64,000 nt of DNA from Candidatus Omnitrophota bacterium (GCA_028716245.1 JAQUQW010000003.1:20638-84637); one strand, 5' to 3'. Shown: positions 19,592-47,702, counted from the stretch's first letter. Made by a program: numbers and translations. Notes: a model not told the origin generated them from the sequence alone.

Positions 19592-19593
19592 CT

Positions 19594-20502: not shown

Positions 20503-20503
20503 T

Positions 20504-21358
20504 TTATTTGGGTAAAATAAACAAAACTAAAATATTCCCAAAACCAAAAATTAAAGTTACCAGCCAGCAGCTTAATAAAGCCAGCTGCCATTTTACTCTG
20601 GCAAAAGTATTATCAATAAGGATAACCAGAAAATAGGCCAATAAACTCAAAAGCACTCCGGCAATCGGCAGATGGGCGAAGAACAAATAAATAAAACCTA
20701 AAACCAGCATATTTTCATACCAATGCGCTAACTCAATCATCGCCAGAGCCTTTCCGGAGAACTCCGTCGTAATCCCTTTAACCAGTTCCTGATGCGCATG
20801 GTGCGAAGTAGACAGGTCAAAGGGTGATTTCCTGAATTTCATCGCCAGGATATACAATAAACCAAACAAGATTCCCGGCAGGTAATAAATCAACGGACGG
20901 GCGAAGGAAACGATATCGGAAACATAAAAACTGCGCGTAACCATATACATACCCACGGCGCTTAAAATAATGATCGGCTCATAAGCCATCATCTGCAATA
21001 ATTCTCTGTGGGCTCCGATAAAGCTGTACGGGGAGCTGGCCTTAAATCCGGCTAAGACAAAAAATATGGCCGCTAGTGTAAAAGCAAAGATCACCAGCAA
21101 TATATCTTTTCCGGTAAAAAACAGGGCGCCGGTGAAAACGACTAAGACTAGAAAAAACCCGATGTAGAAATTCTGGGATCTCCTTACTACCAGGTTCTCT
21201 TTCTGGATTAATTTTAAAACATCAAAAAACGGCTGTAAGATCGGCGGCCCGATCCTGGACTGCATCCGCGCGGTAATCTTGCGGTCTAATCCAGCCAGAA
21301 GCCCTCCGGTTAAAGGAGCCAGGATCAAATATAATAAAATATTCAGGAATATATTCAT
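20504..21358 (-). CDS. echB: Ech hydrogenase membrane subunit (NuoH/HycD-like)
   Basis: 284 aa polytopic; MNIFLNILLYLILAPLTGGLLAGLDRKITARMQSRIGP N-terminus typical of NuoH family. Confidence 0.8.
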   Translation of the reverse strand: MNIFLNILLYLILAPLTGGLLAGLDRKITARMQSRIGPPILQPFFDVLKLIQKENLVVRRSQNFYIGFFLVLVVFTGALFFTGKDILLVIFAFTLAAIFFVLAGFKASSPYSFIGAHRELLQMMAYEPIIILSAVGMYMVTRSFYVSDIVSFARPLIYYLPGILFGLLYILAMKFRKSPFDLSTSHHAHQELVKGITTEFSGKALAMIELAHWYENMLVLGFIYLFFAHLPIAGVLLSLLAYFLVILIDNTFARVKWQLALLSCWLVTLIFGFGNILVLFILPK

Positions 21359-23238: not shown

Positions 23239-23248
23239 AATTTTCTCC

Positions 23249-32145: not shown

Positions 32146-32487
32146 TTACCCAATAGCTATTGCCCCGCGTTCTTCAGTTCTTATACGCACACACTCCTTA
32201 AGATCCAAAACAAAGATCTTGCCATCCCCGGTTTCACCGGTCTTAGCCCCTTTAACAATGGCTTTGATTGTCGGCTCAAGATAATTATCATTTACGGCAA
32301 TTTCAAGACGAATTTTACGCAAAAGGTTTCCGGTTTCCCTGGCCCCCCGATAAACTTCCGTCACGCCTTTCTGCCGGCCATGGCCTAGGACCTCGCTTAC
32401 CGTAAGCAAATTCACCTGCGCTTTATACAACTCTTCTTTTACTTCCTCTAATTTATACGGTTGAATTATCGCAATGACTAATTTCAT
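32146..32487 (-). CDS. glnK: nitrogen regulatory protein P-II
   Basis: 113 aa MKLVIAIIQPYK...; T-loop ...GRQKGVTEVYRG (Tyr51). AGGAGG SD before ATG 32487. The ORF-track TTG extension to 32523 translates the repeat element and is rejected. Confidence 0.9.
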   Translation of the reverse strand: MKLVIAIIQPYKLEEVKEELYKAQVNLLTVSEVLGHGRQKGVTEVYRGARETGNLLRKIRLEIAVNDNYLEPTIKAIVKGAKTGETGDGKIFVLDLKECVRIRTEERGAIAIG

Positions 32488-32499
32488 GTATCCCTCCTT

Positions 32500-32545
32500 G
32501 CCCACAAGGGCACACCCGCGCAATTCCTTATAAGCGCGGGGTGTT
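32500..32545 (-). repeat. GC-rich hairpin element copy 2 in amt-glnK intergenic region
   Basis: Identical to copy 1 over 45 nt; abuts the amt stop codon and the glnK SD. Confidence 0.6.
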
Positions 32546-33770
32546 ATTCTAAAATTGTATATGCGCGTTCACGATGCTGGGTAAGGTCAAGGCCAACCAG
32601 CTCATCCTTTTCGCTTACCCGCATCCTAAAGAAGACATCTACCAGTTTGTAAATAACGAAAGTGGCAAAGAAAGTGTAACTAACCGCAACCACAACCGCA
32701 ACTAATTGTATCAGCAGCTGTTTAGAATTACCATAGAATAATCCATTTGCGCCGGCCGGGTTAATTATCTTAGAAGCCAATACCCCTGTCAAAAGCGTGC
32801 CAAGTATCCCTCCGACGCCATGCACGCCAAAAGCATCCAAAGAATCATCATAACCAAACCGCGGTTTGGTTACGGCAACCGCGATAAAACAAATTATGCT
32901 GGCGGCAATCCCGATAATAATGGCTGAAATCGGGCTGACAAATCCTGAGGCAGGAGTAACAGTAGCAAGTCCTGCAATTGAACCGGTTACGATTCCAAAT
33001 ACCGTGGGCTTGCCATTACGGATCCACTCCAAAAATGCCCAGCTTAAACCCGCTGCTGCTGCGGCAGTATTGGTAGCAATAAAAGCGCTTACGGCAACTC
33101 CATTTACCGCTAAAGCGCTTCCGGCATTAAAACCATACCAGCCAAACCATAAAAGCGCAGTCCCCAAAACTACAAAAGGAAGATTATGCGGCGATGGCGT
33201 ATGCTCCAGGTTTTTTCGCTTACCGATAACAATCGTCGTAACTAAAGCGGCGATGCCTGCGCTGGTATGCACGACAATTCCTCCGGCAAAATCCAAGACA
33301 CCCAGGTTCCTGAGCCATCCGCCAACTCCCCAAACCCAGTGGCACAAAGGATCATAAACAAATGTTGCCCAGAGCAAAGTGAAAACTAAAAATGCCGAAA
33401 ACTTCATCCGCTCGGCAAAAGCGCCGATAATTAAAGCCGGAGTAATCACGGCAAACATCATCTGAAAAACCATAAATGCCTGATGCGGGATAGTCGCGGA
33501 ATAACCCGCGTAAGGAGTCGCCCCCACTCCGTTTAAGCCAAACCAACTAAGCCCTCCCCAAAATCCGTTGCCCGGGGCAAATGCAAGGCTGTAACCAAAA
33601 AGTATCCATTGCAAAGATAATAAACATAAGGCCACAAAACATTGCATTAAGACACTTAAGATATTCTTGCGCCTGACCATGCCGCCGTAGAAAAAAGCCA
33701 GGCCGGGGGTCATCAACATTACAAAGGCCGCCGACATCAAAACGAATAACGTATCTGCTTGATTAATCAT
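32544..33770 (-). CDS. amt: ammonium transporter Amt
   Basis: ~408 aa, 11 TM, Amt signature regions; GGGAGGTGAG SD favours ATG at 33770 (the ORF-track start 33782 lies within the SD). Confidence 0.9.
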   Translation of the reverse strand: MINQADTLFVLMSAAFVMLMTPGLAFFYGGMVRRKNILSVLMQCFVALCLLSLQWILFGYSLAFAPGNGFWGGLSWFGLNGVGATPYAGYSATIPHQAFMVFQMMFAVITPALIIGAFAERMKFSAFLVFTLLWATFVYDPLCHWVWGVGGWLRNLGVLDFAGGIVVHTSAGIAALVTTIVIGKRKNLEHTPSPHNLPFVVLGTALLWFGWYGFNAGSALAVNGVAVSAFIATNTAAAAAGLSWAFLEWIRNGKPTVFGIVTGSIAGLATVTPASGFVSPISAIIIGIAASIICFIAVAVTKPRFGYDDSLDAFGVHGVGGILGTLLTGVLASKIINPAGANGLFYGNSKQLLIQLVAVVVAVSYTFFATFVIYKLVDVFFRMRVSEKDELVGLDLTQHRERAYTILE

Positions 33771-33821
33771 CTCACCTCCCATAAATAGTTCTTTCTCTTA
33801 AGCCCCATTTCCCGATTAGCT

Positions 33822-33859
33822 TCGAAACAGTTTCCAAGTTGAAGCGGAAACTGTTTCGA
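33822..33859. repeat. perfect 14-bp inverted repeat (TCGAAACAGTTTCC-N10-GGAAACTGTTTCGA) ~50 nt upstream of amt
   Basis: Read directly from sequence. Confidence 0.5.
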
Positions 33860-33914
33860 TTAATTCCTCTTATACTACACAACTGGATAATCAACTGTGT
33901 AAAATTTGGGTAAA

Positions 33915-33960
33915 TAAAAAAGCGCCTTTACGGTTTTTTCTTAACCGTATTGGCGCCGAC
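33915..33960 (-). terminator. putative rho-independent terminator after second glnK
   Basis: Minus strand GGCGCCAAUACGG-loop-CCGUAAAGGCGC followed by UUUUUUAUUU. Confidence 0.35.
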
Positions 33961-34050
33961 ATTGCGCTATTCAATATAAACACTACAGCGTGCCTATATT
34001 AACTTATAATCATACAAGTAAACAATTGCTTGTTTTGGTAACTTAAATTT

Positions 34051-34392
34051 TTATCCTATCGCCGAGTTTCCCTGCTCTTCGGTGCGGATGCGGATACATT
34101 CCTTAAGATCCAGGATAAAGATTTTACCGTCGCCAGTTTCACCGGTCTTAGCCCCTTTAACAATAGCTTTGATTGTCTGGTCAAGGTAGTTATCATTCAC
34201 GGCAATCTCAAGACGAATTTTACGCAAAAGGTTTCCGGTTTCCTTCGAACCACGGTAAACTTCCGTCACGCCTTTCTGCCGGCCGTGCCCTAAAACTTCA
34301 CTTACGGTAATCAGGTTTACTTCCGCTTTATACAATTCTTCTTTTACTTCCTCTAATTTATACGGTTGAATTATCGCAATGACTAATTTCAT
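34051..34392 (-). CDS. glnK: nitrogen regulatory protein P-II (second copy)
   Basis: 113 aa, near-identical to the 32146 copy; Tyr51 present. Confidence 0.9.
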   Translation of the reverse strand: MKLVIAIIQPYKLEEVKEELYKAEVNLITVSEVLGHGRQKGVTEVYRGSKETGNLLRKIRLEIAVNDNYLDQTIKAIVKGAKTGETGDGKIFILDLKECIRIRTEEQGNSAIG

Positions 34393-34415
34393 AAAAACCT
34401 CCTTGTGAGAATCCA

Positions 34416-34457
34416 GGGGACGGTTCTGGAAAATCCAGAACCGTCCCCGTGTTTTTC
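34416..34457. repeat. perfect 12-bp hairpin GGGGACGGTTCTGG-AAAATCC-AGAACCGTCCCC with T-run, in amt-glnK intergenic region
   Basis: Read directly from sequence; occupies the same position as hairpin element copy 2 in the other amt-glnK pair. Confidence 0.5.
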
Positions 34458-34458
34458 G

Positions 34459-35688
34459 CTATTCTAATATGGTATACGCCCTCTCTCTATGCTGTGTCAG
34501 GTCAAGGCCCATAGCTTCTGACTTCTCATCCACCCTGACCCCGATAAAAATATCTACTAATTTGTAGATGATAAAGGTCATAACTCCCGTATAAACAACA
34601 GTTACCCCTACAGCTAAAAGCTGAACCAGGAACTGTTTGGGGTTACCAAAAAATACTCCGTTGGCACCGGCGGAATTAACCAGCTTGGAGGCAAATAACC
34701 CGGTAGCCAATGCCCCCCAAATTCCTCCGACACAATGCACGCCAAAAGCATCCAGCGAATCATCATAACCAAACAAAGGTTTGATTACGGTTACAGCGAT
34801 AAAACAAAATACACTTACCAATAAACCGATAATAATTGCCGGGATAACACTGACAAAACCCGCCGCTGGAGTAATCGCAACTAATCCGGCAACCGCGCCC
34901 GAACAAAGGCCGAAGATAGTCGGTTTACCATTACGGATCCACTCAATCAAAGCCCAACTTAAACCCGCGGCCGCCGCGGCAGTGTTGGTCACGACAAAAG
35001 CGTTTACCGCCAGGCCATTTGCCGCTAAAGCGCTTCCGGCATTAAAACCAAACCAGCCAAACCATAAAAGCGCCGTGCCTAAGACCACAAAAGGCATATT
35101 ATGCGGTGTAGGTACATTTTTCTCCAGGTTATTTCTTTTACCTAACACAATTGCCGTCACTAAAGCAGCGATACCGGCGTTGATGTGCACGACAGTGCCT
35201 CCGGCAAAATCCAAAGCTCCCAAATTCCTCAGCCATCCACCTATTCCCCAAACCCAGTGGCATAGAGGATTATAAACAAAGGTTGCCCAAAGCAGGGTAA
35301 AAATTAAAAAAGCCGAAAACTTCATCCTCTCGGCAAACGCACCGATGATTAAAGCCGGAGTGATTATCGCGAACATCGCCTGAAAGATCATAAAGGCCTG
35401 ATGCGGAATCGTTCCGGAGTAGTCCGCATAAGGCTCTAAACCTACTCCATTTAAACCCAGCCATTGCAGCCCTCCCCAGAATCCATTTCCCGGGTGAAAA
35501 GATAAACTATAACCCACCAAAACCCATTGCAGGCTTAAAACACACATAATGATAAAACATTGCATCAAAACACTTAACACATTCTTGCGCCTGACCATGC
35601 CGCCGTAGAAAAAAGCCAGGCCGGGAGTCATCAATAAAACCAGCGCTGATGAAATCAAAACCCACGCCGTATCGCCTGAATTAATCAT
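34459..35688 (-). CDS. amt: ammonium transporter Amt (second copy)
   Basis: 409 aa, paralogous to the 32544 copy. Confidence 0.9.
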   Translation of the reverse strand: MINSGDTAWVLISSALVLLMTPGLAFFYGGMVRRKNVLSVLMQCFIIMCVLSLQWVLVGYSLSFHPGNGFWGGLQWLGLNGVGLEPYADYSGTIPHQAFMIFQAMFAIITPALIIGAFAERMKFSAFLIFTLLWATFVYNPLCHWVWGIGGWLRNLGALDFAGGTVVHINAGIAALVTAIVLGKRNNLEKNVPTPHNMPFVVLGTALLWFGWFGFNAGSALAANGLAVNAFVVTNTAAAAAGLSWALIEWIRNGKPTIFGLCSGAVAGLVAITPAAGFVSVIPAIIIGLLVSVFCFIAVTVIKPLFGYDDSLDAFGVHCVGGIWGALATGLFASKLVNSAGANGVFFGNPKQFLVQLLAVGVTVVYTGVMTFIIYKLVDIFIGVRVDEKSEAMGLDLTQHRERAYTILE

Positions 35689-35708
35689 CTTGCTCTCCTT
35701 TTCTTATA

Positions 35709-35888
35709 TTAATCTATTCTTAATTTATCCTTCACCATCTGCGCGTAAACTTTATTGATGCGCTTGGTCTTAAACCAGCGCTCAATTGTAGTCACCTGAA
35801 TATCCAGCTTTTTGGATAAATCATACAAGGTATAGCTTCTTTCTTCTTTTAGCTGGATCAATTTATCGATCAATTTTCCGTCAATCAT
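35709..35888 (-). CDS. small HTH protein (59 aa) preceding amt-glnK
   Basis: ORF-track call 35709..35981. Paralog alignment (40300..40479) supports a start at MIDGKLIDKLIQLKEERSYTLYDLSKKLDIQVTTIERWF..., giving 59 aa. Confidence 0.45.
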   Translation of the reverse strand: MIDGKLIDKLIQLKEERSYTLYDLSKKLDIQVTTIERWFKTKRINKVYAQMVKDKLRID

Positions 35889-36032
35889 GGAAATTACATA
35901 TGCATTTGATAAAACAAATGTGCAAAAAAAGTTAATAAAAAAGCGCTCTATTTTCATAGAACGCCTATGTTTAAGTCTCACACTTCAATGTGTCTTACAT
36001 TACTACAAGTAAAAAATACTTAAATCTGGTAA

Positions 36033-36557
36033 CTAAATTTTATCTAAATGTTTTTGGGATTTAGCCCTGATCTTGCGCATCAGCTTAACCACGCTGACAT
36101 GGGATATCCCCATACGCTTGCCTATATCTCTGGTAGTCAGGCCCTGGCTAAAATAATCAAGCAGCCTTTTCTCTTTCGGGTTAAAACCATTATCCCGGAT
36201 GCTTTGCGCTAAAAACTTATTGTGTAAATCCTGCCGGCAATCCGGACAAGACCAATATTTCCCCAATACCTCTTCTACGGTTGCCTCATTATTGGTATTC
36301 AAAGAAGCATCCATACTAATAATATTGGAACGCTCATTTACTTTACGGATATAGTTCCTCAAGTGGAAATAACATCCCTGCAAGATATAGCTGTCGGTCT
36401 TATCGCTAAGCTTGCCTTTTAGAAAATTACTCCAAAGGTGGATTGAGGCCTCCTGATACAGATCCTCATGGCTAAACGAACGATAGCGTCCGTTTAACTT
36501 ATAGGCAATCCGCTTAATGGTTGGCGACAGTTTCCGGTGCAACTCCTCAAAACCCAT
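36033..36557 (-). CDS. sigma-70 family (ECF-like) sigma factor
   Basis: Region 2-like DLYQEASIHLWSNF and region 4 HTH LTTRDIGKRMGISHVSVVKLMRKIRAK. Confidence 0.7.
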   Translation of the reverse strand: MGFEELHRKLSPTIKRIAYKLNGRYRSFSHEDLYQEASIHLWSNFLKGKLSDKTDSYILQGCYFHLRNYIRKVNERSNIISMDASLNTNNEATVEEVLGKYWSCPDCRQDLHNKFLAQSIRDNGFNPKEKRLLDYFSQGLTTRDIGKRMGISHVSVVKLMRKIRAKSQKHLDKI

Positions 36558-36604
36558 AGTTTACTCCCTTGTTAAAACAAAAACGTCCTTTGGTCCCATA
36601 TGGG

Positions 36605-36650
36605 TACACCCCGCGCTTATAATGTATTGCGCGGGTGTGCCCTGGTGGGC
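36605..36650 (+). repeat. GC-rich hairpin element copy 3, inverted orientation, between sigma-factor gene and P-type ATPase gene
   Basis: tacaccccgcgcttataatgtattgcgcgggtgtgccctggtgggc = reverse complement form of copies 1/2; preceded by CCCATATGGG palindrome. Confidence 0.55.
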
Positions 36651-36774
36651 AAAGGACGCCTTAGTCCTGACAAAATAAAAAAGCCTTCCGGCAAACCTTT
36701 CTCGCCAGAAGACTTCTGTGTCTTTTGCTACAACGCTGTAATCTATTTAAAGTTTAACACATTTCAGGGATTTG

Positions 36775-39700
36775 TCAACTAAAATTCCCAAAACGTTTCC
36801 GCAATTCTTCGATAGCAAATATCGATAGCATAAATAGAAATAATATCACCCAGTCCCCTGAGCTTAAACCCGTAGTATTGAATATCTTCTGAAAAAACGG
36901 CACGTAGATCAAGACGCAGGTAAAAATAAACGAAATGGCAATACTCCAGAAAATACGCATATTACTGAAAAACCCGATCCTAAATGTTGAATATTTTTCG
37001 CTGCGGCAATTAAAAACATTGGCGATTTGCATCACGACAATACCAACAAAAAGAATGGTCATTGCCTTCAGATGCAGCGGATTAGTAAAGGTAGTGTCAT
37101 TTGGCTCAAGCTGCATTCCGGGTTTCCATCCTCCCTGAAAAAGTATAAGATAATAGGAACCTAAGGTTGCCGCCGTGCTCAACAGCCCCAAAATGATATA
37201 ACCTCTAAAGAGCACCATTTTATCAATCACTCCTTTATTCTTAGGCCTTGGCGGAAGGTTCATTATCCCCGGCTCGGGTTTCTCCGCGCCTAAGGCCAAG
37301 GCGGGAAAAATCTCCGTGCCCAAATCAATAGCTAAAATCTGCAGTACGGCAATCGGCACGGGAATCTTAAATAAAACATAGAATATAAAAGGTATCCCCT
37401 CGGGTACAAGGTGGGCGAAGATATAGGTAATAAATTTCTTGATATTATCGAATACCGCCCGGCCCTCTTCAATAGCCGAAACGATACTGGCAAAATTATC
37501 GTCGAGCAGAACCATCTCGGCGGATTCTTTGGCCACGTCAGTCCCGCGCAGCCCCATCGCCACGCCAATATCGGAACGCTTAAGGGCAGGGGCATCGTTG
37601 ACGCCGTCTCCGGTCACCGCCACGATATTACCCATCTCCTTAAAAGTATTTACCACCCTTAATTTATGCTCGGGATTTGCCCTGGCAAAAATAATTTCTT
37701 TGCTGCCAACCTTCTCCTTTAATTGCTCATCGCTCATATGAATCAAATCTGTTCCGTTAATAACTTCGTAATTTTGCGAAGACACAATCCCTACCTGCCT
37801 GGCGATAGATAGGGCGGTTACCTGATAATCACCGGTAATCATCACCACGCGAATTCCGGCTTTTTTGCAAATCCCGACAGCATCTTTTACTTCCGGCCGG
37901 GGTGGATCATACATACCCGTGGCTCCGACAAAAACCAACTCTTTTTCAACCGACTGCGCCGTCGCCCCGGAAATATCCTTGGGATTAATTTTACAAAATG
38001 CAAAACCCAAAACCCTTAAACCTTCTTCGGCAAACCTCTCTACAGAAGCGGATATTTCCGATTTCTTCTCTACAGTCAAATCCGCGATATCGTTTCCAAG
38101 CATAACCTTATTACAAAGCTCCAGGATCTCTTTAGGAGAGCCCTTAACCAACGCATAAGTATCTCCATCGGGAAGAGTATGGATAGAGCTCATTCTCTTA
38201 CGTATCGATTCAAATGGAAAACGTTTTAGTACCGGATATTTTAGGCGCTCTTGGTCGGCGTCATAACCGGCTTTTCGCATTAAGGTCAATAATGCGGCTT
38301 CCGTCGGATCGCCAATAATACTCCAATACGTTATCGTCTCTGAGGGAGAATTTAGCTTTGCGGTATTGCATAATGCGCAAATATGCATCAGCTGATCAAA
38401 AGCAGCGCTCCGAAGAACATTTTTTAAAAGAACGCTGCCCTTACAAGTAAATTCTCCTGCCGGTTCATATCCGCTTCCGGAGGCTTCGATAACCTTATCA
38501 TCGATCCAAATTTTCCGGACACTCATTTGATTGGTTGTCAGCGTGCCGGTTTTATCCGTGCAAATAACGTTGGTACAACCCAACGTTTCTACTGAAGAAA
38601 GTTTTTTGATCAGGGCTTTCCGCTTAGCCATCCGCTGCACGGCCATGGCCAAGGCAAGGGTCAAAGTAGGCATGAGCCCCTGAGGAACATTGGCCGTAAT
38701 AATACCTATCGCAAACATTCCCGAAGCAAAAACCGTCAATTTAGTAAAAAATAAACCCGCAAAGAAAAAAACCAAACCCATAGCTACCGATATAAATGAA
38801 ATCAATTTGCCGATGCGATTGACCTCTCTTTGCAGCGGGCTGAGATCTTCTTTGACCGTCTGCGTCAGGTAGGCGATTTTACCAATCTCGGTCCCCATAC
38901 CCGTGGCAATGACCACCGCTTTTCCCATGCCTGAGGCAACGCTGGTTCCGGCAAAAACCAAATTAGGCATTTCCAGCCACAGAAAATCCTTTCCGTCATG
39001 AAATTCCTCTGAAAATTTATAGGCCAGCTTGGATTCTCCGGAGAAGGCGCTATTGTTCAAGCGTAATTCGGCAGCTTCGATCAACCTGGCATCCGCGGGG
39101 ACGTTATCTCCTTCCTCCAGCATAATGATATCTCCCGGGACAATCTCGCTTGTAGGCACGAGCTTCTCCTTGCCCTCCCTGATTAGACGGGCATTAGATG
39201 GAATCAGTTTGGAAAGCGCCTCAATCGCCTTCTCCGCTTTAAACTCCTGCCAAAAACTAAATATCGCGTTAATAAAGACTACGGCAATGCAGGCCCAACC
39301 TGCCTCCGGCATCTGCGCCCAAAAACAAAGGGCGCCGCAAATCCACATCATCACCGCCAGTAAATTAGTAAGATGGAGCGAGAACCTTATAATCAAGGGG
39401 GTTTTTTTAACGGCTTTCAATTTATTGGTTCCATATACCTCCAGCCGTTTTCCCGCGGAAACTTCAGAGATACCGTTATCGCTGCTTGCCAATTCAAGAT
39501 AAATCTCCTCTTTGCTTAAAGCGATAAAACCTTCTTTCTCGATTCCTCCATACTTTAAGGCCCGATAGAGCTCCTCGTTGGTTGAGCAGTTCAGGATCTG
39601 CCGGACAAATACTTTATTATCCAAGAGTACGGCCAGCTTCGATAAAATTTTAAGATGCATTTCGCTTTCTACCAGCGGAGTCAGAAAAAACATAACCAAA

Positions 39701-40029
39701 TGCACCGGCTTCTTGTCAATGGAAGAAAAATCTATTCCTTCCCTTGAGATGCCAACAAATATCAATCCCTCTTTTAGTTCAGCTATTCTAGCATGGGGGA
39801 TAGCTATGCCATCCCCGATTCCGGTACTGCCAAGCTTTTCCCTTTTGAGAAGGCTTTCTAAAACACGTTTTTTGTCTTTAATTTTGCGGCTTTTATAAAG
39901 CTGGTCGACAATCTCCCGGATTACACCTTCACTTGTACGGGATTTCAAGTTTACGCTTAATAGATCCTTATATACCAAATCCGCGATTTTCACTTCTTGC
40001 TCTCCTTTTATACCAGCGTTCTCATACAA
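36775..40029 (-). CDS. P-type cation-transporting ATPase with N-terminal PTS EIIA(Ntr)-like domain
   Basis: N-terminal ~150 aa: ...GIGDGIAIPHARI... (EIIA type-2 active-site His). Remainder: DKTGTLT phosphorylation motif, TGDGVNDAPAL, 8-10 TM. TTG start. Confidence 0.85.
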   Translation of the reverse strand: MYENAGIKGEQEVKIADLVYKDLLSVNLKSRTSEGVIREIVDQLYKSRKIKDKKRVLESLLKREKLGSTGIGDGIAIPHARIAELKEGLIFVGISREGIDFSSIDKKPVHLVMFFLTPLVESEMHLKILSKLAVLLDNKVFVRQILNCSTNEELYRALKYGGIEKEGFIALSKEEIYLELASSDNGISEVSAGKRLEVYGTNKLKAVKKTPLIIRFSLHLTNLLAVMMWICGALCFWAQMPEAGWACIAVVFINAIFSFWQEFKAEKAIEALSKLIPSNARLIREGKEKLVPTSEIVPGDIIMLEEGDNVPADARLIEAAELRLNNSAFSGESKLAYKFSEEFHDGKDFLWLEMPNLVFAGTSVASGMGKAVVIATGMGTEIGKIAYLTQTVKEDLSPLQREVNRIGKLISFISVAMGLVFFFAGLFFTKLTVFASGMFAIGIITANVPQGLMPTLTLALAMAVQRMAKRKALIKKLSSVETLGCTNVICTDKTGTLTTNQMSVRKIWIDDKVIEASGSGYEPAGEFTCKGSVLLKNVLRSAAFDQLMHICALCNTAKLNSPSETITYWSIIGDPTEAALLTLMRKAGYDADQERLKYPVLKRFPFESIRKRMSSIHTLPDGDTYALVKGSPKEILELCNKVMLGNDIADLTVEKKSEISASVERFAEEGLRVLGFAFCKINPKDISGATAQSVEKELVFVGATGMYDPPRPEVKDAVGICKKAGIRVVMITGDYQVTALSIARQVGIVSSQNYEVINGTDLIHMSDEQLKEKVGSKEIIFARANPEHKLRVVNTFKEMGNIVAVTGDGVNDAPALKRSDIGVAMGLRGTDVAKESAEMVLLDDNFASIVSAIEEGRAVFDNIKKFITYIFAHLVPEGIPFIFYVLFKIPVPIAVLQILAIDLGTEIFPALALGAEKPEPGIMNLPPRPKNKGVIDKMVLFRGYIILGLLSTAATLGSYYLILFQGGWKPGMQLEPNDTTFTNPLHLKAMTILFVGIVVMQIANVFNCRSEKYSTFRIGFFSNMRIFWSIAISFIFTCVLIYVPFFQKIFNTTGLSSGDWVILFLFMLSIFAIEELRKRFGNFS

Positions 40030-40067
40030 ATAAAAAACCAGAGAACGCTTTCCCTGGCATGTTCTCT
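40030..40067 (-). terminator. leader terminator hairpin (AGAGAAC-N14-GUUCUCU + U6) immediately upstream of ATPase start; overlaps alternative antiterminator
   Basis: Plus-strand 40040..40046 / 40061..40067 inverted repeat; U-run from 40039..40030 on minus strand; 3' arm AGCGUUCUC is also exactly complementary to codons 3-5 (GAGAACGCU). Confidence 0.4.
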
Positions 40068-40233
40068 CAAAATTGGCTTACGAGGTTAGCTGTCGGGCTC
40101 GGGTCGAGTAACCCTAATCTGATATTTCCAGATATTGGCCCCAAGATCATTTTAGTCGATCGGATTCTTGGATTCCCCGCTATCTTTTTAGATTCACATA
40201 CAAGTCTAAAAAAAGATTAAGCTTATTAAAATA

Positions 40234-40261
40234 AATATACCGCAAAAAATACCTTTGTCAA
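40234..40261 (-). promoter_or_regulatory. putative sigma70 promoter (-35 TTGACA, 16-nt spacer, -10 TATATT) driving ~200-nt leader of ATPase gene
   Basis: Read from minus strand: gcTTGACAaaggtattttttgcggTATATTtattt. Confidence 0.35.
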
Positions 40262-40299
40262 GCTCAAAACTTCTCTAATTTATTTAATAATGAATAAAA

Positions 40300-40479
40300 T
40301 TAATCTATGTTCAATGTTTCCCTGACTAATCTGGCATAAACTTTATTAATGTGCTTAGTCCTGAACCATCTTTCTATAGTAGTTACTTGGAGGTCGAGTT
40401 TCTTAGATAGATCGTAAAGAGTATACTTTCTTTCTTCTTTAAACTGTAAAAGTTTGCTAATTAATTCCGTATCCAACAT
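40300..40479 (-). CDS. small HTH protein (59 aa), paralog of 35709..35888; below ORF-track length cut-off
   Basis: Own translation: MLDTELISKLLQFKEERKYTLYDLSKKLDLQVTTIERWFRTKHINKVYARLVRETLNID; GGAGGA SD 7 nt upstream; precedes glnB-like gene. Confidence 0.5.
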   Translation of the reverse strand: MLDTELISKLLQFKEERKYTLYDLSKKLDLQVTTIERWFRTKHINKVYARLVRETLNID

Positions 40480-40495
40480 CTAGAAATTCCTCCGG

Positions 40496-40834
40496 CTATA
40501 CCGCGTCCTCTCCTTTTTCATCGGTGCGGATTCTGATTGCGTTATCTGCCGGATAAACAAATATTTTACCATCCCCCACCTTCCCGGTAAAAGCAGCTTC
40601 GCGCATAGCTTTGATTGTCTTATCCAAATCCCGGTCATTGACCACAACCTCAAGTTTTGCCTTGCTCAGTAATTCTGTTTTATAGGTTTTGCCGCGGAAT
40701 TCCTGCTCTATGCCTTTTTGTTTGCCGTGCCCTTCGATTTCAGTAATCATAATCCCCGGATGTCCAACCTTCTCCAGGGCAGCGCACACATCGCCGACTT
40801 TTGCGGGACGAATTATAGCTTCTATCTTTTTCAT
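40496..40834 (-). CDS. P-II family nitrogen regulatory protein (third; Phe at T-loop position 51)
   Basis: 112 aa; ...GHGKQKGIEQEFRGKTY... T-loop with F instead of Y. Confidence 0.85.
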   Translation of the reverse strand: MKKIEAIIRPAKVGDVCAALEKVGHPGIMITEIEGHGKQKGIEQEFRGKTYKTELLSKAKLEVVVNDRDLDKTIKAMREAAFTGKVGDGKIFVYPADNAIRIRTDEKGEDAV

Positions 40835-40902
40835 AGTCTCACCCCTTTATTAGGAATCGATATCTGTCTAAAAAATGACTGCTAAACTCAAAAAGAGCGT
40901 TT

Positions 40903-42225
40903 CTAAAAAGTAAACAAGATGTCCCCGCCTAACATCAACTGACCTTTATCCTTGTTGTCAAAGACCTTGCGGTTAGCCCAGTCATAGCGGACTTCCGGCC
41001 TTAGCAGCAAATTAGATAAAATCTTGTCTTTTGGAAACGGCTTGATAGCCACGCCCACTGTGGACTCGTAGTAATTGGCACCGGTGGATGCGCCAGTAGC
41101 AAAACCATTGGATGAATCGTTGTACCATTCCAACCGCCCATTAAGCGTGAAGTGTGGATCGAAAGCATAGCTTACATAGCCATCCACGGCTCCCCATTGC
41201 TTGGTGCCATTTTTTAAGCCGGGGATCTGCGGAGCGTCAACATAGTCAAGGCCTGTACCCAGGCTCAATTTGTCGGTTACCTTCTGTGTTACCACCAAAT
41301 CCAACGCAGTCCACCAATGTTTGTTGTCGCCAGCAGGTAAATTACTTCCTACAGCTATAGGGTATTCCGGACCTTCAGTCATAACGAAAATAACGCAAGT
41401 CTTATCGCTAGGCGTATAGGTAACGCGGCCCAAGAAGTCAGAAGTACCATTAGAATCCCGCGTTGACTGGTTCCAACCCCGTGTAAGGCCGGCGTCAAAG
41501 GTCCATTGAGGATTCAATATATAGGTAGCAAAGGCCCCTGTCTGCGTACCCGGCTCCGCATAGAGGAACGAGTAGCTATAGGAATATAGTGCCCTGGATG
41601 GATCTCCGAATGCGCCATATATGTTGGCGTCGAATTGCTCAAAACCGGCAAGTTCAATCCATTTTCCGACGCGAATTTTCATAGGCACATAAGGCAGCGC
41701 TACGTCTACGTATGCTTCCAGAGGATCCCATTGGTAGCGTCCGGTCTGCGTAGCAACAAGGCCGTTTGAATGTATCCATTTTGAATCAAAACCCCAGATA
41801 GTCTTCGAACGAAAACCCCAGTCAAGCTGTCTCTTAGAAGGATCTACTGTCCGCTCAATAGTTAAACCAATCTTGTCAAGAAGCGGGGTGTTCTTTAAGT
41901 TATTGAATCCCATAAAGGTCTGGCCCTTTTTTGGTACTGTACTATCGTACATGTAACCGGCTTGGCTGTAGCCATAGATGTTAATCCCAAGTTTGCTCAA
42001 AGGGTTAGCCAGTCCTGCCTTGTCCAAAATACTCATCAATGGCGCAAGCGAAGGTGTAGCCGCTGGCGCAGGTGTGGCCGCAGGCGCAGCTGCTGGTGCC
42101 ATATTGCCGGCATCCTCCGCCAAAACAGAAGGAATATTTACTCCAAGAAAACATAATCCCAAAAATATTACTACCATACTACCGCTTACGATACCTTTAA
42201 ATATACTCCCAAACTTCTCCATCAT
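40903..42225 (-). CDS. putative outer-membrane beta-barrel porin
   Basis: Signal peptide, Ala/Pro-rich linker, alternating amphipathic strands, C-terminal ...ILFTF. Confidence 0.45.
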   Translation of the reverse strand: MMEKFGSIFKGIVSGSMVVIFLGLCFLGVNIPSVLAEDAGNMAPAAAPAATPAPAATPSLAPLMSILDKAGLANPLSKLGINIYGYSQAGYMYDSTVPKKGQTFMGFNNLKNTPLLDKIGLTIERTVDPSKRQLDWGFRSKTIWGFDSKWIHSNGLVATQTGRYQWDPLEAYVDVALPYVPMKIRVGKWIELAGFEQFDANIYGAFGDPSRALYSYSYSFLYAEPGTQTGAFATYILNPQWTFDAGLTRGWNQSTRDSNGTSDFLGRVTYTPSDKTCVIFVMTEGPEYPIAVGSNLPAGDNKHWWTALDLVVTQKVTDKLSLGTGLDYVDAPQIPGLKNGTKQWGAVDGYVSYAFDPHFTLNGRLEWYNDSSNGFATGASTGANYYESTVGVAIKPFPKDKILSNLLLRPEVRYDWANRKVFDNKDKGQLMLGGDILFTF

Positions 42226-42239
42226 TTTTCTCCTTCCTC

Positions 42240-42560
42240 TTAAACAACTGCCTTATCCATTTTTTCTTTTGTACGTATACGAATGCAGTTATCCAATGGC
42301 ATTACAGCGACTTTGCCGTCACCGGCATGGCCGGAAAAACATTCTTTTAAGATTACGGCCAGAATTTCATTTACCTGAGAATCAAGGGCATAAACCTCGA
42401 TCTTGGTTTTATGCACAAAAAGGAAACTTTCCGGCCTTATGCTCTGGATGCCAAAACCACGCACTTCACTTACTGTCATTCCCCCTATCCCGGCTCCCAG
42501 CAGCGCCTCAGTCAGCTCTTTTAGTTTTTCCGAACGGATAATGCATTCTATCTTCTTCAT
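42240..42560 (-). CDS. divergent P-II-like protein (fourth)
   Basis: 106 aa; P-II fold pattern MKKIECIIRSEKL...GDGKVAVMPLDNCIRIRT with atypical T-loop. Confidence 0.6.
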   Translation of the reverse strand: MKKIECIIRSEKLKELTEALLGAGIGGMTVSEVRGFGIQSIRPESFLFVHKTKIEVYALDSQVNEILAVILKECFSGHAGDGKVAVMPLDNCIRIRTKEKMDKAVV

Positions 42561-42584: not shown

Positions 42585-44453
42585 CTATATTGCCCAAACC
42601 CCTTGTTCTCCTGTTCGGATACGCATAGCTTCCGATGCATCGGTCACGAAGATCTTACCGTCACCGACATTACCGGTACAGGCGGCCTCCTTTATAATAT
42701 CCATTATTTGAGGAACATCCCATTCTTTAACTACGACATCAATCCTAATCTTGGGGATAAAACTAATTTTATCACTTTCCGGCTCTCCATCAAGGTGTCC
42801 TTTTTGCCTGCCGAACCCCTTTACTTTTGTAACAGTCATGCCTAGAATACAGTCGTCCTCTTTAAGGGCCTGCACCACAATATTCAACTGTTCCGGACGG
42901 ATCATGCCAGATACCATTTTTAAGCGGTATGTTTTTCGCACGGTAGTTACTGCAACATAGATAATACTTATCAGAGCCCATCCTCCGGCGAACATAAAGC
43001 AAATCTTTGCTTCTGACTTGGCATCGGCATTACCAATAATATATAGGTAAAGGATACCTATGGTCATAACAACATTGGCAATGACGCCTGCCACAGGAAT
43101 AATACCATGCTTTAAAAGATTAAAATCTTCCCTGCCCTTGAATGCCACAATAGTCCATACACAGGTCAGGCCATAAAGTATGAATGTTCCTAGGTTTGAA
43201 GCAAGAGTAATACCCGTTAGCCCGACTACTGACCGAACGCCAATAGCCCCGACTACTGAAGTAATCAGGATCAAGGTTGCAAGGGAAACATGTGGGGTAA
43301 TATACTTAGTATGTATAAAACCTAGCGAGGAAGGCAGCTCTCTGTCCTCTGCCATACCAGCACTCACACGCATTGCCGTATTCATACAGCTTAAGGTTGT
43401 TCCGATTACCGCAATGGCTACAGTAATTGCCATAGTAATCATTAAACCAAATCCCAAGCCATGGAACAGAGAATCTCCGATCAACTTGGCTAGGTCTCCG
43501 ATTGGAGCGCCTGATGCCGCGGCAGCAGCCATACCGGTTACCGTGGTGGTACCAGTAGTATTGACTAACTTCTCACTAATCATAAAGCTTGCGCCGAAAT
43601 ACTCAAACAGATAAGCAAACAACCCCTGGACAATAAGAGAAATGATAATCGCCTTAGGAATTGTTGATTGAGGGTTTTTTGTTTCAGCTGCTAAAGCTGT
43701 GCAGCTTTCAAAACCAACCAGGATTAAAATAGCTATGGTCGACTGAACCAAAATACCCTGCAAGGAATGTATCCTAATAATATCCACACCTCCGCTAAAA
43801 ACCCATTGCGCTGCGTGTTGGGGATTAGCAATACGGTACCAGATGGCTAAGGCGGTAAAGATAATTAAGGTAATCCATTGGATAACATTGATCCAGATTG
43901 CTACCACCGTTGAGCCTGTCACTCCCCGGTAGGCTATATAGCCGGTAACAACTGTAAATGCAATACCGATAACAGTCATATTCATTATCGATAAAGTATG
44001 CCCGGTAAACTGTGTATAAATATAACCGATAAGAGTCGCCATCATCGCGACCATAACTCCCGGATAAACCCAATAGAAAAGATGCGCTGCCCAACCAGTA
44101 ACAAGCTTAGCTATGCGGGCCATTGAAGTGGGGCCGCTGACTTTCTCCTTGCGAGCGTCCAAGAAAGCCTTTTCCGCAAAGTAGGTGCAGCTGGCAAAAC
44201 CCGCCTCAGGATAAATTTTTGCAAGTTCCGAATAGGATAGGGCTGTCAAAAAACATACGGTCAGAGCAAGCGCAATACCTGCCCAGATATCGCTTGCAAC
44301 AGATGCCCCGCTTGGCGCACTAGCAGCGGCTTGCAGCTGATAGGTAATCCACAAAAATGCCCCTGGGGCAATCAAGGCCATCGCGTTCATCGCCGCACCT
44401 AATAACCCCAGCTTAGGTTTTACTAGAGATAAGTCATTTTGATTTTGTGCCAT
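42585..44453 (-). CDS. APC-superfamily transporter with C-terminal P-II domain
   Basis: ~500 aa 12-TM permease then ...MIRPEQLNIVVQALKEDDCILGMTVTKVKGFGRQKGH...GDGKIFVTDASEAMRIRTGEQG (P-II fold). Confidence 0.7.
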   Translation of the reverse strand: MAQNQNDLSLVKPKLGLLGAAMNAMALIAPGAFLWITYQLQAAASAPSGASVASDIWAGIALALTVCFLTALSYSELAKIYPEAGFASCTYFAEKAFLDARKEKVSGPTSMARIAKLVTGWAAHLFYWVYPGVMVAMMATLIGYIYTQFTGHTLSIMNMTVIGIAFTVVTGYIAYRGVTGSTVVAIWINVIQWITLIIFTALAIWYRIANPQHAAQWVFSGGVDIIRIHSLQGILVQSTIAILILVGFESCTALAAETKNPQSTIPKAIIISLIVQGLFAYLFEYFGASFMISEKLVNTTGTTTVTGMAAAAASGAPIGDLAKLIGDSLFHGLGFGLMITMAITVAIAVIGTTLSCMNTAMRVSAGMAEDRELPSSLGFIHTKYITPHVSLATLILITSVVGAIGVRSVVGLTGITLASNLGTFILYGLTCVWTIVAFKGREDFNLLKHGIIPVAGVIANVVMTIGILYLYIIGNADAKSEAKICFMFAGGWALISIIYVAVTTVRKTYRLKMVSGMIRPEQLNIVVQALKEDDCILGMTVTKVKGFGRQKGHLDGEPESDKISFIPKIRIDVVVKEWDVPQIMDIIKEAACTGNVGDGKIFVTDASEAMRIRTGEQGVWAI

Positions 44454-45295: not shown

Positions 45296-46981
45296 TTAAC
45301 CGCGATACTTATTGGTAATCGGCATGCGCCTGTCCCGGCCAAAGGCTTTAGGCGTGATCTTGATACCCGGAGGAGACTGCCTGCGTTTATATTCATTTTT
45401 ATCCACCATACCTACGGTCTTATTAACAATTTCTTTATCAAAACCTAAAGAAATAATTTTCGCTAAATCCTTATCTTCCTCAACATAGGCTTTGAGGATC
45501 GCATCCAGGGTTTCATAAGGCGGCAAAGTATCCTGATCCTTTTGGTTTGGCTTTAGTTCGGCAGTAGGGGCCTTGGTAAATACGCGCTCAGGGATAACCT
45601 GACAGATAGAATTCCGGTATCGGGATAATTTATAAACTAATGTTTTGGGCACATCTTTTATCACGGCAAGGCCGCCGGCCATATCGCCATAAAGAGTGGC
45701 GTAACCTGTGCTCATCTCCGATTTATTTCCGGTAGTCAAAACCAGCCAGCCGAACTTGTTGGAAAAAGCCATCAGGATATTGCCTCTTATGCGCGCCTGC
45801 AGGTTCTCCTCGGCTGTATCCCTTGCCAAACCTGTAAAATGCGGCTCAAGCACCAACAGGTAAAACCTGAATATTTGTTCGATAGAAATAGTGATAAATT
45901 TAATCCCTAAATTTCTCGCTAGCGCGATAGCGTCTTCATGTGACTGGTTGGAAGAATAGCGCGAAGGCATAAATACGCCGGTAACATTTTCTCGGCCCAA
46001 AGCATCAACCGCTAGTGTTGCCACAAGAGAAGAGTCAATCCCGCCGCTTAAACCGATTATAACTTTTCCGAAATCGTTTTTAAGCACGTAATCCTTTAAT
46101 CCTAAAACTAATGCCTGATAAACCTCAGCTGCCGGTTCTAAAATTTTAGGCTCTTGCCGGATAGCTATTTTTTTCTTTGCCGGTGCCTTTGTGCTTGAGA
46201 TTCTAATTATCTTTTTAGAAAACCTTATTCTCCTTACGGGAATAGCTAAATCCTGAATTAATAAATCTTCCGCAAAGGCCTTGGCGCAGGCCAGCATCTT
46301 ACCCTTATTATCAACAATCATACTCTGGCCGTCAAATACCAGCTCGTCCTGGCCACCGACAAGGTTAGCGTAAACAACAAATACCTTGTTAGTCTTGGCT
46401 TGATTGGTAATGATCGCCTGCCTTTCCTTAAATTTAGCCGCATAATAGGGAGAAGCATTGATATTCAGGATTAATTTTGCTCCCGATGCTGCCTGCGATT
46501 TTGTCGGCCCGTCCGGATACCAGATATCTTCGCAGATATTTACCCCAAAGATAAAATCGCGGAGTCCAAAAACCAGAGATTTATTCCCGGGGTCAAAATA
46601 ACGCCGCTCATCAAAAACCCCGTAATTGGGCAGAAAAATTTTACGATACACCCCTTTAATTTGCCTGTTATAAATTATCGCGGCGGCATTGTATGTTTCT
46701 TTAAACCTGCCATCAGCAAAACCCACAATCGCTACAACATTACCATTGATATTTTTTGCCAAATTTTCTAAGGCATCGATATTATCGCTGATAAATTTTG
46801 GTTTTAACAGGAGATCTTCGGGAGGGTATCCGCAAAGCGCCAATTCCGGAAAACAGATTATATCTGTGCCGTAATCTTTTGCTTTTTCGATATAGCGGAT
46901 GATTTTAGCGGCATTTCCCTGCAGGTCGCCGACAGTGGAATTTACCTGCGCGATTGCTACGCGTAAAGACTTATCTTTCAT
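45296..46981 (-). CDS. nadE: glutamine-dependent NAD+ synthetase (nitrilase + synthetase domains)
   Basis: 561 aa; N-terminal CN-hydrolase domain (E...K...C triad region) and C-terminal SGGIDSS PP-loop. Confidence 0.85.
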   Translation of the reverse strand: MKDKSLRVAIAQVNSTVGDLQGNAAKIIRYIEKAKDYGTDIICFPELALCGYPPEDLLLKPKFISDNIDALENLAKNINGNVVAIVGFADGRFKETYNAAAIIYNRQIKGVYRKIFLPNYGVFDERRYFDPGNKSLVFGLRDFIFGVNICEDIWYPDGPTKSQAASGAKLILNINASPYYAAKFKERQAIITNQAKTNKVFVVYANLVGGQDELVFDGQSMIVDNKGKMLACAKAFAEDLLIQDLAIPVRRIRFSKKIIRISSTKAPAKKKIAIRQEPKILEPAAEVYQALVLGLKDYVLKNDFGKVIIGLSGGIDSSLVATLAVDALGRENVTGVFMPSRYSSNQSHEDAIALARNLGIKFITISIEQIFRFYLLVLEPHFTGLARDTAEENLQARIRGNILMAFSNKFGWLVLTTGNKSEMSTGYATLYGDMAGGLAVIKDVPKTLVYKLSRYRNSICQVIPERVFTKAPTAELKPNQKDQDTLPPYETLDAILKAYVEEDKDLAKIISLGFDKEIVNKTVGMVDKNEYKRRQSPPGIKITPKAFGRDRRMPITNKYRG

Positions 46982-47702
46982 TTTTCTTGGCTCTTATGTC
47001 TTTTGCCAAAATAATCGCTTCGGCCACCTGGCGCATGGATTTTCGCATATCCATACTTTGCTTCTGGATCAAGCGATATGCCTCTGAAGGTAGAATATTA
47101 GCTTCTTGAGAAAGGATATCCTTTGCCCGCTCGACTAATTTACGAATATTCAAAGCCTCTTCTGCCGAGCGAACGCGTAAATCCAGCTCCGCGTTTTCAA
47201 TGGCAATCGCTGCCTGGTTTGCCAAAGCCGTCAAAAGATCCAATTCGTGTTTAGAAAATTTGTGCTTTTTAGAAGTATAGCAGTTAAGCGCTCCGATAAC
47301 TCTTCCCTTCACTGCCAACGGCACACAGGCCAAAGAACAAAGGCCCTCTTTTTTAGCCAGATCCTGGTTTAGATAGCGGCCGTCGGTTTTAACATCCAAA
47401 ATACACACCGGCTTGTTGTCTCTGGCAACCACGCCGGCTATGCCCTCGCCTAAACGGATATTGGGCTTTTTATTGTAGGCCTCAGATATTGACTGCGTAG
47501 CTTTAACTACCAGCTCCTTCTTATCCGGATCAAGCAACATCAAAGAAGAAATCTTAGAGCTCATAATTTCAGCGGTAACCTGCACAACCAGGCGCAACAG
47601 TTCTTCAAGGTACATACCTGAAGTAATCAGGTTGGCTACTTTAGAAATTGCCTCGATCTGTTTTACGTAAACCTGAAAATTATCTTTCTTTTTGGCAGCC
47701 AT
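46971..47702 (-). CDS. GAF-ANTAR RNA-binding antitermination regulator
   Basis: N-terminal GAF-like domain; C-terminal ANTAR ...ALNIRKLVERAKDILSQEANILPSEAYRLIQKQSMDMRKSMRQVAEAII. Confidence 0.7.
   Translation of the reverse strand: MAAKKKDNFQVYVKQIEAISKVANLITSGMYLEELLRLVVQVTAEIMSSKISSLMLLDPDKKELVVKATQSISEAYNKKPNIRLGEGIAGVVARDNKPVCILDVKTDGRYLNQDLAKKEGLCSLACVPLAVKGRVIGALNCYTSKKHKFSKHELDLLTALANQAAIAIENAELDLRVRSAEEALNIRKLVERAKDILSQEANILPSEAYRLIQKQSMDMRKSMRQVAEAIILAKDIRAKKNER

Follow-up and report, generated by a model that had tools for sequence, protein, structure and literature searches.

Work on two systems for the control of potassium has until now concerned different phyla: the cyclic di-AMP (c-di-AMP) system has been studied mainly in Firmicutes and Actinobacteria, and the PtsN branch of the phosphotransferase system (PTS) in Proteobacteria. 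Riboswitches that bind c-di-AMP are transcriptional OFF switches for K+ importers, among them kimA, ktrAB and the P-type ATPase operon kdpFABC (PMC6488665). Unphosphorylated PtsN controls KdpD and the expression of Kdp (PMC9239096) as well as the K+/H+ antiporter YcgO (PMC11808508). Terminal autoinhibitory R domains are common among P-type ATPases, and in a recent review of the field, which has no mention of PTS domains or riboswitches, the role of prokaryotic P2C-type pumps figures as unsolved (PMC10654040). Here we analyze a gene on which the two K+ control systems would meet, in poorly known phyla. It lies on the minus strand of a stretch of 64,000 nucleotides from Candidatus Omnitrophota bacterium (GCA_028716245.1, JAQUQW010000003.1:20638-84637; hereafter the window, with positions counted from its first letter) and encodes a PtsN-like EIIA domain fused to a P2-type cation ATPase.

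That this is a genuine, widespread and riboswitch-controlled EIIA::P2-ATPase module we consider very probable. The further proposal, that it is an ATP-driven K+-uptake pump (H+ or Na+/K+ exchange) repressed by c-di-AMP, with EIIA as a phosphorylation-dependent regulatory domain, is in our judgement evenly balanced between right and wrong.

Results

An EIIA domain and a complete P-type ATPase in one reading frame

Positions 36775-40029 (-) form a single uninterrupted open reading frame (ORF) from the stop codon to a TTG. We prefer initiation at the GTG at 39993, which gives a product of 1072 amino acids plus stop, since the TTG at 40029 sits in the U-tract of the leader terminator and was rejected as a start, while the GTG follows a ribosome-binding site by 6 nt and yields a protein 100% identical to a deposited one (P0001, from a Candidatus Omnitrophica metagenome-assembled genome (MAG)). 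Residues are numbered from this GTG. In frame and in order the product contains the Pfam domains PTS_EIIA_2, Cation_ATPase_N, E1-E2_ATPase, Cation_ATPase, Hydrolase and Cation_ATPase_C, all far over their cut-offs. The PTS_EIIA_2 (PF00359) match has a score of 122.5 bits against a cut-off of 27 (E 1.8e-35) and covers model positions 5-142 of 144; it spans residues 21-159 when numbered from the TTG.

An earlier note on this DNA had read the gene as an EIIA domain in frame with a full P-type ATPase, quoting the motifs GIAIPHAR, DKTGTLT and TGDGVNDAPAL and proposing a search with domain hidden Markov models (HMMs) as a check. The single ORF, the Pfam domains and the conserved motifs bear this out, and the quoted motifs are all present in the sequence. 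Their cores (His67, DKTGT and TGDGVNDAP) are invariant across 120 homologues, with a few conservative changes elsewhere in the quoted motifs. Here and below, homologue counts refer to the best 120 protein clusters, at 67-100% identity, from assemblies held by NCBI, JGI, ENA and Logan; the total is at least 120. PF00359 and the ATPase domains are found in all of these 120. Moreover, the junction from EIIA to the second transmembrane segment (TM2) is encoded contiguously on 58 metagenome contigs. An assembly artefact is therefore ruled out, since the fusion recurs in independent assemblies.

A c-di-AMP riboswitch in the leader

The 355-nt gap 5' of the pump gene holds a promoter, a riboswitch aptamer and an intrinsic terminator, in that order, and then the ribosome-binding site. 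The earlier note had overlooked these leader elements. The promoter is the best scoring one within the 5.3-kb region scanned and abuts the 5' side of the riboswitch. The aptamer aligns on the sense strand of the leader to all 134 positions of the RF00379 model, with 72.2 bits (gathering threshold 38) and E 8e-15; it ends 66 nt before the start codon and is the sole Rfam match at gathering level in the whole 64 kb. An expression platform follows it: the 3' tail of the aptamer, GAGAGAAC, is on inspection complementary to GTTCTCT in the 3' arm of the terminator, and may thus form an alternative antiterminator pairing, with the usual competition between antiterminator and terminator. The leader is predicted to function as a c-di-AMP OFF switch. 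A second intrinsic terminator lies 3' of the stop codon, and since the gene also has its own promoter it is therefore monocistronic.

The riboswitch is not peculiar to the window. It was present in all seven loci fetched by exact-protein look-up (67.6-84.8 bits) and in all 20 metagenome loci tested against Rfam (57.8-92.1 bits), and an orthologous riboswitch was Rfam-verified at 29 related loci. Extension with an nhmmer profile found it in 52 of 55 assessable non-redundant loci. Of 58 loci, 44 have a terminator-like hairpin 3' of the aptamer, and these hairpins form two co-varying sequence classes. Two of the three exceptions, which we label L018 and L031 (loci are designated by L and a number), retain a terminator-like remnant within the last 120 nt before the pump gene, and L031 also retains the same TTGACA..TATATT promoter; the aptamer is gone. 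They therefore look like natural aptamer deletions, and expression at these two loci should be independent of c-di-AMP. A Fibrobacter-type clade (58% identity), three distant fused clades and the nearest unfused pump all lack the riboswitch.

A TrkH-family partner gene in some loci

In five loci the riboswitch is found about 1.4 kb upstream of the pump gene, and the gap is filled by a gene of the TrkH/KtrB family (PF02386, 183-195 bits; TIGR00933, 304 bits). Two more loci have trkH upstream of the pump, truncated by the contig end. In L016 and L020 (9740-9985) a trkH relic of about 80 residues remains between riboswitch and pump, a sign that an ancestral riboswitch-trkH-pump operon has decayed in some lineages. 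The neighbors of the pump in L048 are those of the Phycisphaerae loci L003 and L004 (yidC, pump, mnmE, dnaK), trkH being the sole difference. The c-di-AMP riboswitch and the trkH partner together point to K+ and osmotic homeostasis as the primary context of the pump.

A type II pump with an unusual ion pocket

The catalytic motifs and five Pfam ATPase domains over cut-off identify the core as a P-type ATPase of type II. Asp480 of DKTGT is found in 120/120 homologues, as are S-G-E of SGES (final Ser, 118/120) and the T-G-D-G and N-D-A-P residues of TGDGVNDAP (Val, 118/120). The nearest solved pumps are the alpha subunits of Na,K- and H,K-ATPase (E about 1e-155), followed by Listeria LMCA1 (1e-143) and SERCA (1e-134). 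The top NCBIfam model, TIGR01106 (IIC), scores 617 bits against a cut-off of 946, and all subfamily models stay under their cut-offs. The protein is no KdpB (P1A), with 103 bits against a cut-off of 528, and neither kdpA nor kdpC was found among the annotated genes of the window.

The canonical PEGL of TM4 is replaced by PQGL. The Gln is found in 116 of the 120 close homologues and Glu in the other four, while other fused clades examined have Glu, except P0123 (Leu), as do unfused relatives. In TM5 and TM6 the residues His861, Leu862, Glu865, Asp890 and Glu894 are each conserved in 120/120, and Thr893 in 114/120. Compared with Na,K-ATPase, TM5 reads A-H-L-V-P-E versus T-S-N-I-P-E, TM6 D-L-G-T-E versus D-L-G-T-D, and TM8 Q-I-A-N versus Q-x-A-D. 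The P2C residues Glu327, Ser775, Asn776, Asp808 and Asp926, whose roles in Na,K-ATPase are well established, thus have Gln, His, Leu, Glu and Asn as their equivalents. A Na,K-like pocket (E / S-N..E / D..T-D) persists in more distant fused clades and in the nearest unfused pumps, so that the pocket of the present clade is derived.

Two other ion specificities have to be weighed against these residues. An ordinary Ca2+ or Mg2+ pump is what many automatic names of homologues would suggest, and the models for PMR1, SERCA and MgtA do give high partial scores. All three nevertheless stay under their cut-offs. The TM4 Glu is essential for Ca2+ site II of SERCA, and it is Gln in 116/120; where SERCA has Asn768, Asn796 and Glu908, the present pump has Leu, Asp and Gln. 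Both the pocket residues and the HMM cut-offs lead us to reject this annotation, and we regard such a function as extremely unlikely.

Alternatively, the pump could be mainly an exporter of Na+ (or H+), with K+ at most a counter-ion; it would be induced with TrkH/Ktr-type uptake, clearing the Na+ that enters with K+, or energising the membrane. P2-type pumps take their primary substrate from the cytoplasmic side, the nearest relatives retain a Na,K-like site I/II pocket, automatic names of homologues include "potassium/sodium efflux P-type ATPase", and co-transcription with trkH would fit such a division of labor. We nonetheless consider this unlikely: the equivalents of Na+ site III are not conserved (Asp926 to Asn, Thr774 to Ala), and the characterised ion-transporter targets of c-di-AMP riboswitches are importers (PMC6488665). 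An exchange pump, moreover, would do both, so that this alternative overlaps with the K+-uptake pump that we favor.

The EIIA domain and a possible phosphorelay

Its Pfam match, its nearest structures and its active site identify the N-terminal domain as a true EIIA domain of type 2. The nearest solved structures are those of PtsN (3urr, 4gqx and 1a6j; E about 4e-18), with IIA-Mtl at 2e-7. The alignment to PtsN pairs Arg51 with the Arg of TREK, His67 of GIAIPHAR with His73, and His113 with the His of KTHLH; Arg51, His67 and His113 are thus equivalent to Arg57, His73 and His120 of E. coli PtsN. His67 and His113 are conserved in 120/120 homologues and Arg51 in 119/120. In an AlphaFold2 (AF2) model residues 1-150 fold as a separate alpha/beta module, with predicted local distance difference test (pLDDT) values of 73-90 by block, and linker residues 151-157 have a pLDDT below 50.

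The domain does not reach the equivalog models for PtsN (TIGR01419, 84.7 versus 138.7 bits; NF008145, 76.3 versus 221) or for the IIA domain of fruA (96.8 versus 103.5). Separate PtsN-like EIIA genes (PF00359, 126-128 bits) were found on two Phycisphaerae-type contigs, about 5.5 kb downstream of the pump, in L052 at 18679-19173 (-) and in L067 at 18683-19141 (-). The ORFs adjoining them had no Pfam match, and no recognisable rpoN or npr was found there. The free-standing EIIA of L052 is likewise under the equivalog cut-offs, and the phylum's own PtsN-like proteins are therefore divergent too.

No gene for EI, HPr or NPr was found among all ORFs of the window and of about 700 kb from 73 related loci (that is, the window and these loci rather than whole genomes), with sequences from E. 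coli and B. subtilis as queries; nor was rpoN found in the window or these 700 kb. PtsN proper is free-standing, is encoded with rpoN, hpf and npr and is phosphorylated by EI-Ntr through NPr, whereas here the domain is fused and these partners were not found. PTS genes are usually unlinked to their targets, and their absence from the flanks therefore says little. The phosphodonor of the domain, and with it the "direct nitrogen-PTS phosphorylation control" proposed in the earlier note, can so far only be inferred.

It might be argued that EIIA stands outside any PTS phosphorelay, as a structural or ligand-binding autoinhibitory module in which the His serves folding or ligand contact. SLC4 anion exchangers, which have an EIIA-like cytoplasmic domain, would be the model. 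Such a role would agree with the lack of EI, HPr and NPr near any locus, with scores under the PtsN and FruA thresholds, and with the variation of the Arg51 and His113 equivalents in distant fused clades. Yet the phospho-acceptor His is retained in every fused clade, including all the distant ones, the Arg/His/His set is kept in 119-120 of 120 core members, and free PtsN-like genes exist in the same genomes; the missing relay genes are, as noted, weak evidence. We therefore regard a domain outside the phosphorelay as rather unlikely, and prefer a phosphorylation-dependent regulatory domain.

Distribution of the fused pumps

Counted by protein cluster, the fusion is found at least 120 times in Omnitrophota and Phycisphaerae, and source names place more distant fused clades in a Fibrobacter MAG, NC10, Turneriella and cultured species of Leptospira. 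When 1.84 billion cluster representatives were searched, the top 150 included only a handful of fused ones. In a crude neighbor-joining tree of the ATPase part the fused proteins formed three sub-clades within one 29-member clade and were mostly mutual nearest neighbors. The tree, which is indicative rather than a robust phylogeny, is compatible with one old fusion event. Full-text searching of the literature turned up no description of the fusion, none of a c-di-AMP riboswitch before a P2-type pump, and nothing relevant on the PTS in Omnitrophota, Planctomycetes or Leptospira. Database names for homologues are generic or wrong, for example "HAD-IC family P-type ATPase", "Ca2+/Mg2+-transporting ATPase" or "fructose-specific PTS IIA component", and hundreds of database entries for such pumps are misleadingly annotated.

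Coordinates of the pump unit and its features in the window
Feature	Position	Strand	Basis
Sigma-70-like promoter, TTGACA-16-TATATT	40234..40261	-	11/12 consensus matches
c-di-AMP riboswitch aptamer, RF00379 (ydaO/kimA class)	40059..40233	-	Rfam, 72.2 bits
Expression platform: intrinsic terminator, 9-bp stem (40058-40037), U-rich tail	40027..40058	-	Hairpin minimum free energy -14.8 kcal/mol
Ribosome-binding site AAAGGAGAG	40000..40008	-	6 nt before GTG 39993, from sequence
Coding sequence of the EIIA::P2-type ATPase fusion	36775..39993	-	ORF, Pfam/NCBIfam, identical deposited protein
PTS EIIA type-2 (PtsN-like) domain, residues 9-147	39553..39969	-	PF00359, PtsN structure matches, AF2 module
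His67 codon, predicted phospho-acceptor	39793..39795	-	Aligned with E. coli PtsN His73
Short linker, residues 148-157, EIIA to Cation_ATPase_N	39523..39552	-	Pfam boundaries, AF2
Type II P-type ATPase core, residues 158-1072	36778..39522	-	SGES, DKTGT, TGDGVNDAP
TM4 Gln438 codon, PQGL for canonical PEGL	38680..38682	-	Opposite Glu of NVPEGL
Asp480 codon in DKTGT, phosphorylation site	38554-38556	-	
TM5-TM6 pocket: His861, Leu862, Glu865, Asp890, Thr893, Glu894	37312..37413	-	Alignment with Na,K/H,K-ATPase
Intrinsic terminator past the stop codon, 17-pair stem then TTATTTTGTC	36679..36717	-	Closes the transcription unit

The nitrogen island

The pump unit is set within a nitrogen island. In minus-strand order this comprises an amino-acid permease::PII fusion, PII, a BBP2 porin, PII and a 59-residue protein, then the pump unit, and beyond it an ECF-type sigma factor, a 60-residue paralogue, Amt, PII, Amt, PII, glutamine synthetase III (GSIII), a Fis-type helix-turn-helix (HTH) protein and glutamate synthase (GOGAT). 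Farther upstream are NadE, a GAF-ANTAR protein, an aminotransferase and AsnC. The nitrogen genes of the window are thus GOGAT, GSIII, two Amt, four PII and one permease::PII fusion. The neighborhood is shared with L006 (an 88% relative) and in part with L008, where glutamine synthetase (GS) genes flank the pump and Amt and PII genes are also found, with L001 (GOGAT) and with L036. A second, separate nitrogen association is seen in L077, which represents an independent fused clade with no riboswitch (43% identity, Na,K-like pocket) and has amt (7481-8650) directly downstream of the pump.

The earlier note took this location as support for a nitrogen-linked role in ion homeostasis. The island is real, but it is not a family trait: more than 70 loci were examined, and about 60 of them have no nitrogen genes, among them the Phycisphaerae loci, in which the pump gene lies between yidC and mnmE; the Phycisphaerae loci and L005, all without nitrogen genes, carry the riboswitch nevertheless. 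The pump unit is also autonomous, and because it has its own promoter, leader and terminator its position alone implies no co-regulation with amt or glnK. The nitrogen association is recurrent yet lineage-specific, and not the defining context of the family. A metabolic link from K+ to glutamate and ammonium is plausible.

The same facts bear on the idea of a pump dedicated to nitrogen under the nitrogen PTS, for example one that takes up NH4+ at the cost of ATP or exchanges NH4+ and K+. To Na,K- and H,K-ATPases NH4+ is a congener of K+, and the pump is placed among amt-glnK pairs, GS and GOGAT in the window and L006, between GS genes in L008, near GOGAT in L001 and just upstream of amt in L077. 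Against this stand the approximately 60 loci lacking nitrogen genes, with the yidC and mnmE neighbors in Phycisphaerae, a monocistronic gene whose leader would sense c-di-AMP rather than nitrogen, and a recurrent operon partner that is trkH. We consider a nitrogen-dedicated pump very unlikely and, as before, favor a pump for K+.

Other observations on the neighborhood

Two paralogues of 59-60 residues, 73% identical to each other, bracket the pump unit at 40300-40479 (-) and 35709-35891 (-), one after a PII gene and the other before amt. They share an HTH-like core, YTLYDLSKKLD[IL]QVTTIERWF, and had no Pfam or NCBIfam match. A 59-residue homologue of them precedes amt in L006, and these proteins may be small regulators of nitrogen genes.

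Four free-standing PII genes, together with a fused PII domain, are found in about 12 kb (the free genes at 32146-42560). The fused domain (residues 512-616, 75 bits) is at the C-terminus of an APC-family permease at 42585-44453 (-), which is followed by a free PII gene; a transporter::PII fusion of this kind is unusual. In L007 a 663-residue AA_permease is encoded directly upstream of the pump. The BBP2/OmpL-like outer-membrane porin at 40903-42225 is flanked by two PII genes, an arrangement suggestive of a PII-associated porin for a nitrogen compound.

The ECF-type sigma-70 factor that adjoins the pump at 36033-36557 (-) has 174 residues (TIGR02937, 48.6 bits), and no anti-sigma factor was identified. 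Such a sigma factor also lies next to the pump in five closer relatives of the window, L006, L015, L025, L027 and L072, either just downstream of the pump or just upstream of the riboswitch. The GAF-ANTAR protein of the nitrogen region, an RNA-binding antiterminator of the NasR/AmiR type, is encoded at 46971-47702 (-), and in L006 a GAF-ANTAR gene (8976-9698) is immediately 5' of the pump leader. Elsewhere in the window, an Ech/Mbh-type membrane hydrogenase cluster (18160-23334) includes a gene at 19594-20502 (-) in which a NuoB/Oxidored_q6-like small subunit is fused to a C-terminal GNAT acetyltransferase domain.

Discussion

We propose that the locus is a self-contained module of promoter, c-di-AMP riboswitch with terminator, acting as an OFF switch, and a single pump gene. 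With satisfactory K+ and osmotic status c-di-AMP would be high, the leader bound, and transcription terminated before the pump gene; upon K+ limitation c-di-AMP would fall, and read-through would allow the pump to be made. Like Na,K- and H,K-ATPase, the pump would then move cytoplasmic H+ or Na+ out and K+ in, driven by ATP. The derived pocket (Gln in TM4, His-Leu in TM5, Asp/Glu in TM6 and no Na+ site III) probably binds fewer ions. At the protein level EIIA, which a linker of about 10 residues joins to the N-terminal segment ahead of the actuator domain, would bring in metabolic (carbon and nitrogen) information, its effect on the pump being set by the phosphorylation state of His67 through a relay of the EI/NPr type. 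A bolder version, that such pumps are an unrecognised class of single-chain, Na,K/H,K-ATPase-like exchangers that sense c-di-AMP and PTS state and replace Kdp in Omnitrophota and Phycisphaerae, is possible but doubtful.

Several points weigh against this proposal and call for some caution. First, the ion and the direction of transport are deduced from regulation, synteny and homology, and since the pocket is unlike that of every characterised pump, K+ is not assured. Secondly, c-di-AMP riboswitches also act on genes other than those for K+ transport, such as those for cell-wall hydrolases and for osmolyte and amino-acid transporters. Thirdly, the distant and Fibrobacter-type fused clades have no riboswitch, and the two controls are therefore not obligatorily coupled. 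As regards EIIA, its scores below the PtsN and FruA equivalog cut-offs and the lack of EI, HPr and NPr in the window and the 700 kb of related loci count on the same side. The full-length AF2 model, made from an alignment of 60 close homologues, has a mean pLDDT of 62 and a predicted template modelling score (pTM) of 0.39, so that the packing of EIIA against the pump, and any interface between them, cannot be read from it.

The function of prokaryotic relatives of Na,K-ATPase is an open problem of the field (PMC10654040), and the present family offers testable clues to it in the form of a ligand-defined riboswitch, a K+-translocating operon partner and a fixed but unusual ion pocket. Since fused relatives occur in cultured saprophytic Leptospira, part of the hypothesis is genetically testable. 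Should the bolder version be true, it would provide the first functional handle on prokaryotic P2C-like pumps, and a P-type ATPase would for the first time be known to be controlled through a PTS domain that is phosphorylated on histidine.

Among the systems described, the KdpFABC of the Bacillus cereus group is alike in being a K+ P-type ATPase whose transcription a c-di-AMP riboswitch shuts off by means of an intrinsic terminator (PMC6488665), and the Kdp of E. coli and rhizobia in receiving input from unphosphorylated EIIA-Ntr (PMC9239096); the locus described here would combine both inputs. Kdp differs in that it is a P1A pump of four subunits on which PtsN acts indirectly, via the kinase KdpD, whereas here EIIA is covalently joined to a single-chain P2-type pump. 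The alpha subunits of Na,K- and H,K-ATPase (P2C) are the best structure and NCBIfam match and share the TM5/TM6 framework (..PE..P.., IDLGT[DE]). Unlike them, the present protein is under the IIC cut-off, has Gln in TM4, His for Ser/Lys and Leu for Asn in TM5, Glu for the second Asp of TM6 and Asn for Asp in TM8, a shorter TM7-8 loop (judged from alignment gaps) and an added N-terminal EIIA. The animal pumps bind their obligatory beta subunit through this loop; none would be expected here.

Free PtsN, with its targets TrkA, KdpD and YcgO, shares with the fused domain its fold family, its active site and the theme of K+ flux tuned by phosphorylation (PMC11808508, PMC9239096). It is, by contrast, a soluble single-domain protein of the rpoN operon with several targets in trans, whereas the domain studied here is covalently part of a single transporter, in cis, and is no equivalog by HMM (84.7 versus 138.7 bits). 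By analogy, the clearest precedent for the proposed regulation in cis is LacS, a non-PTS transporter with a fused EIIA-type domain, in which phosphorylation by HPr modulates transport (PMC10710835). The domain of LacS belongs to the EIIA-Glc superfamily, not to Fru/Mtl/Ntr, and is attached to the C-terminus of a secondary carrier of the GPH type, so that regulation of the present pump by EIIA would, if true, be a second and mechanistically distinct case in which a PTS domain regulates a transporter in cis. Finally, in P2B pumps (PMCA/ACA) and P3A pumps (plant and fungal H+-ATPases) a terminal R domain binds to the catalytic machinery until a signal releases it (PMC10654040). In those pumps the R domain is a short and largely unstructured peptide, controlled by calmodulin or by Ser/Thr phosphorylation and 14-3-3 proteins, whereas the present pump has a folded domain of 140 residues, predicted to be phosphorylated on histidine, and gating by EIIA would thus, if true, add a new type of regulatory domain to the P-type ATPases.

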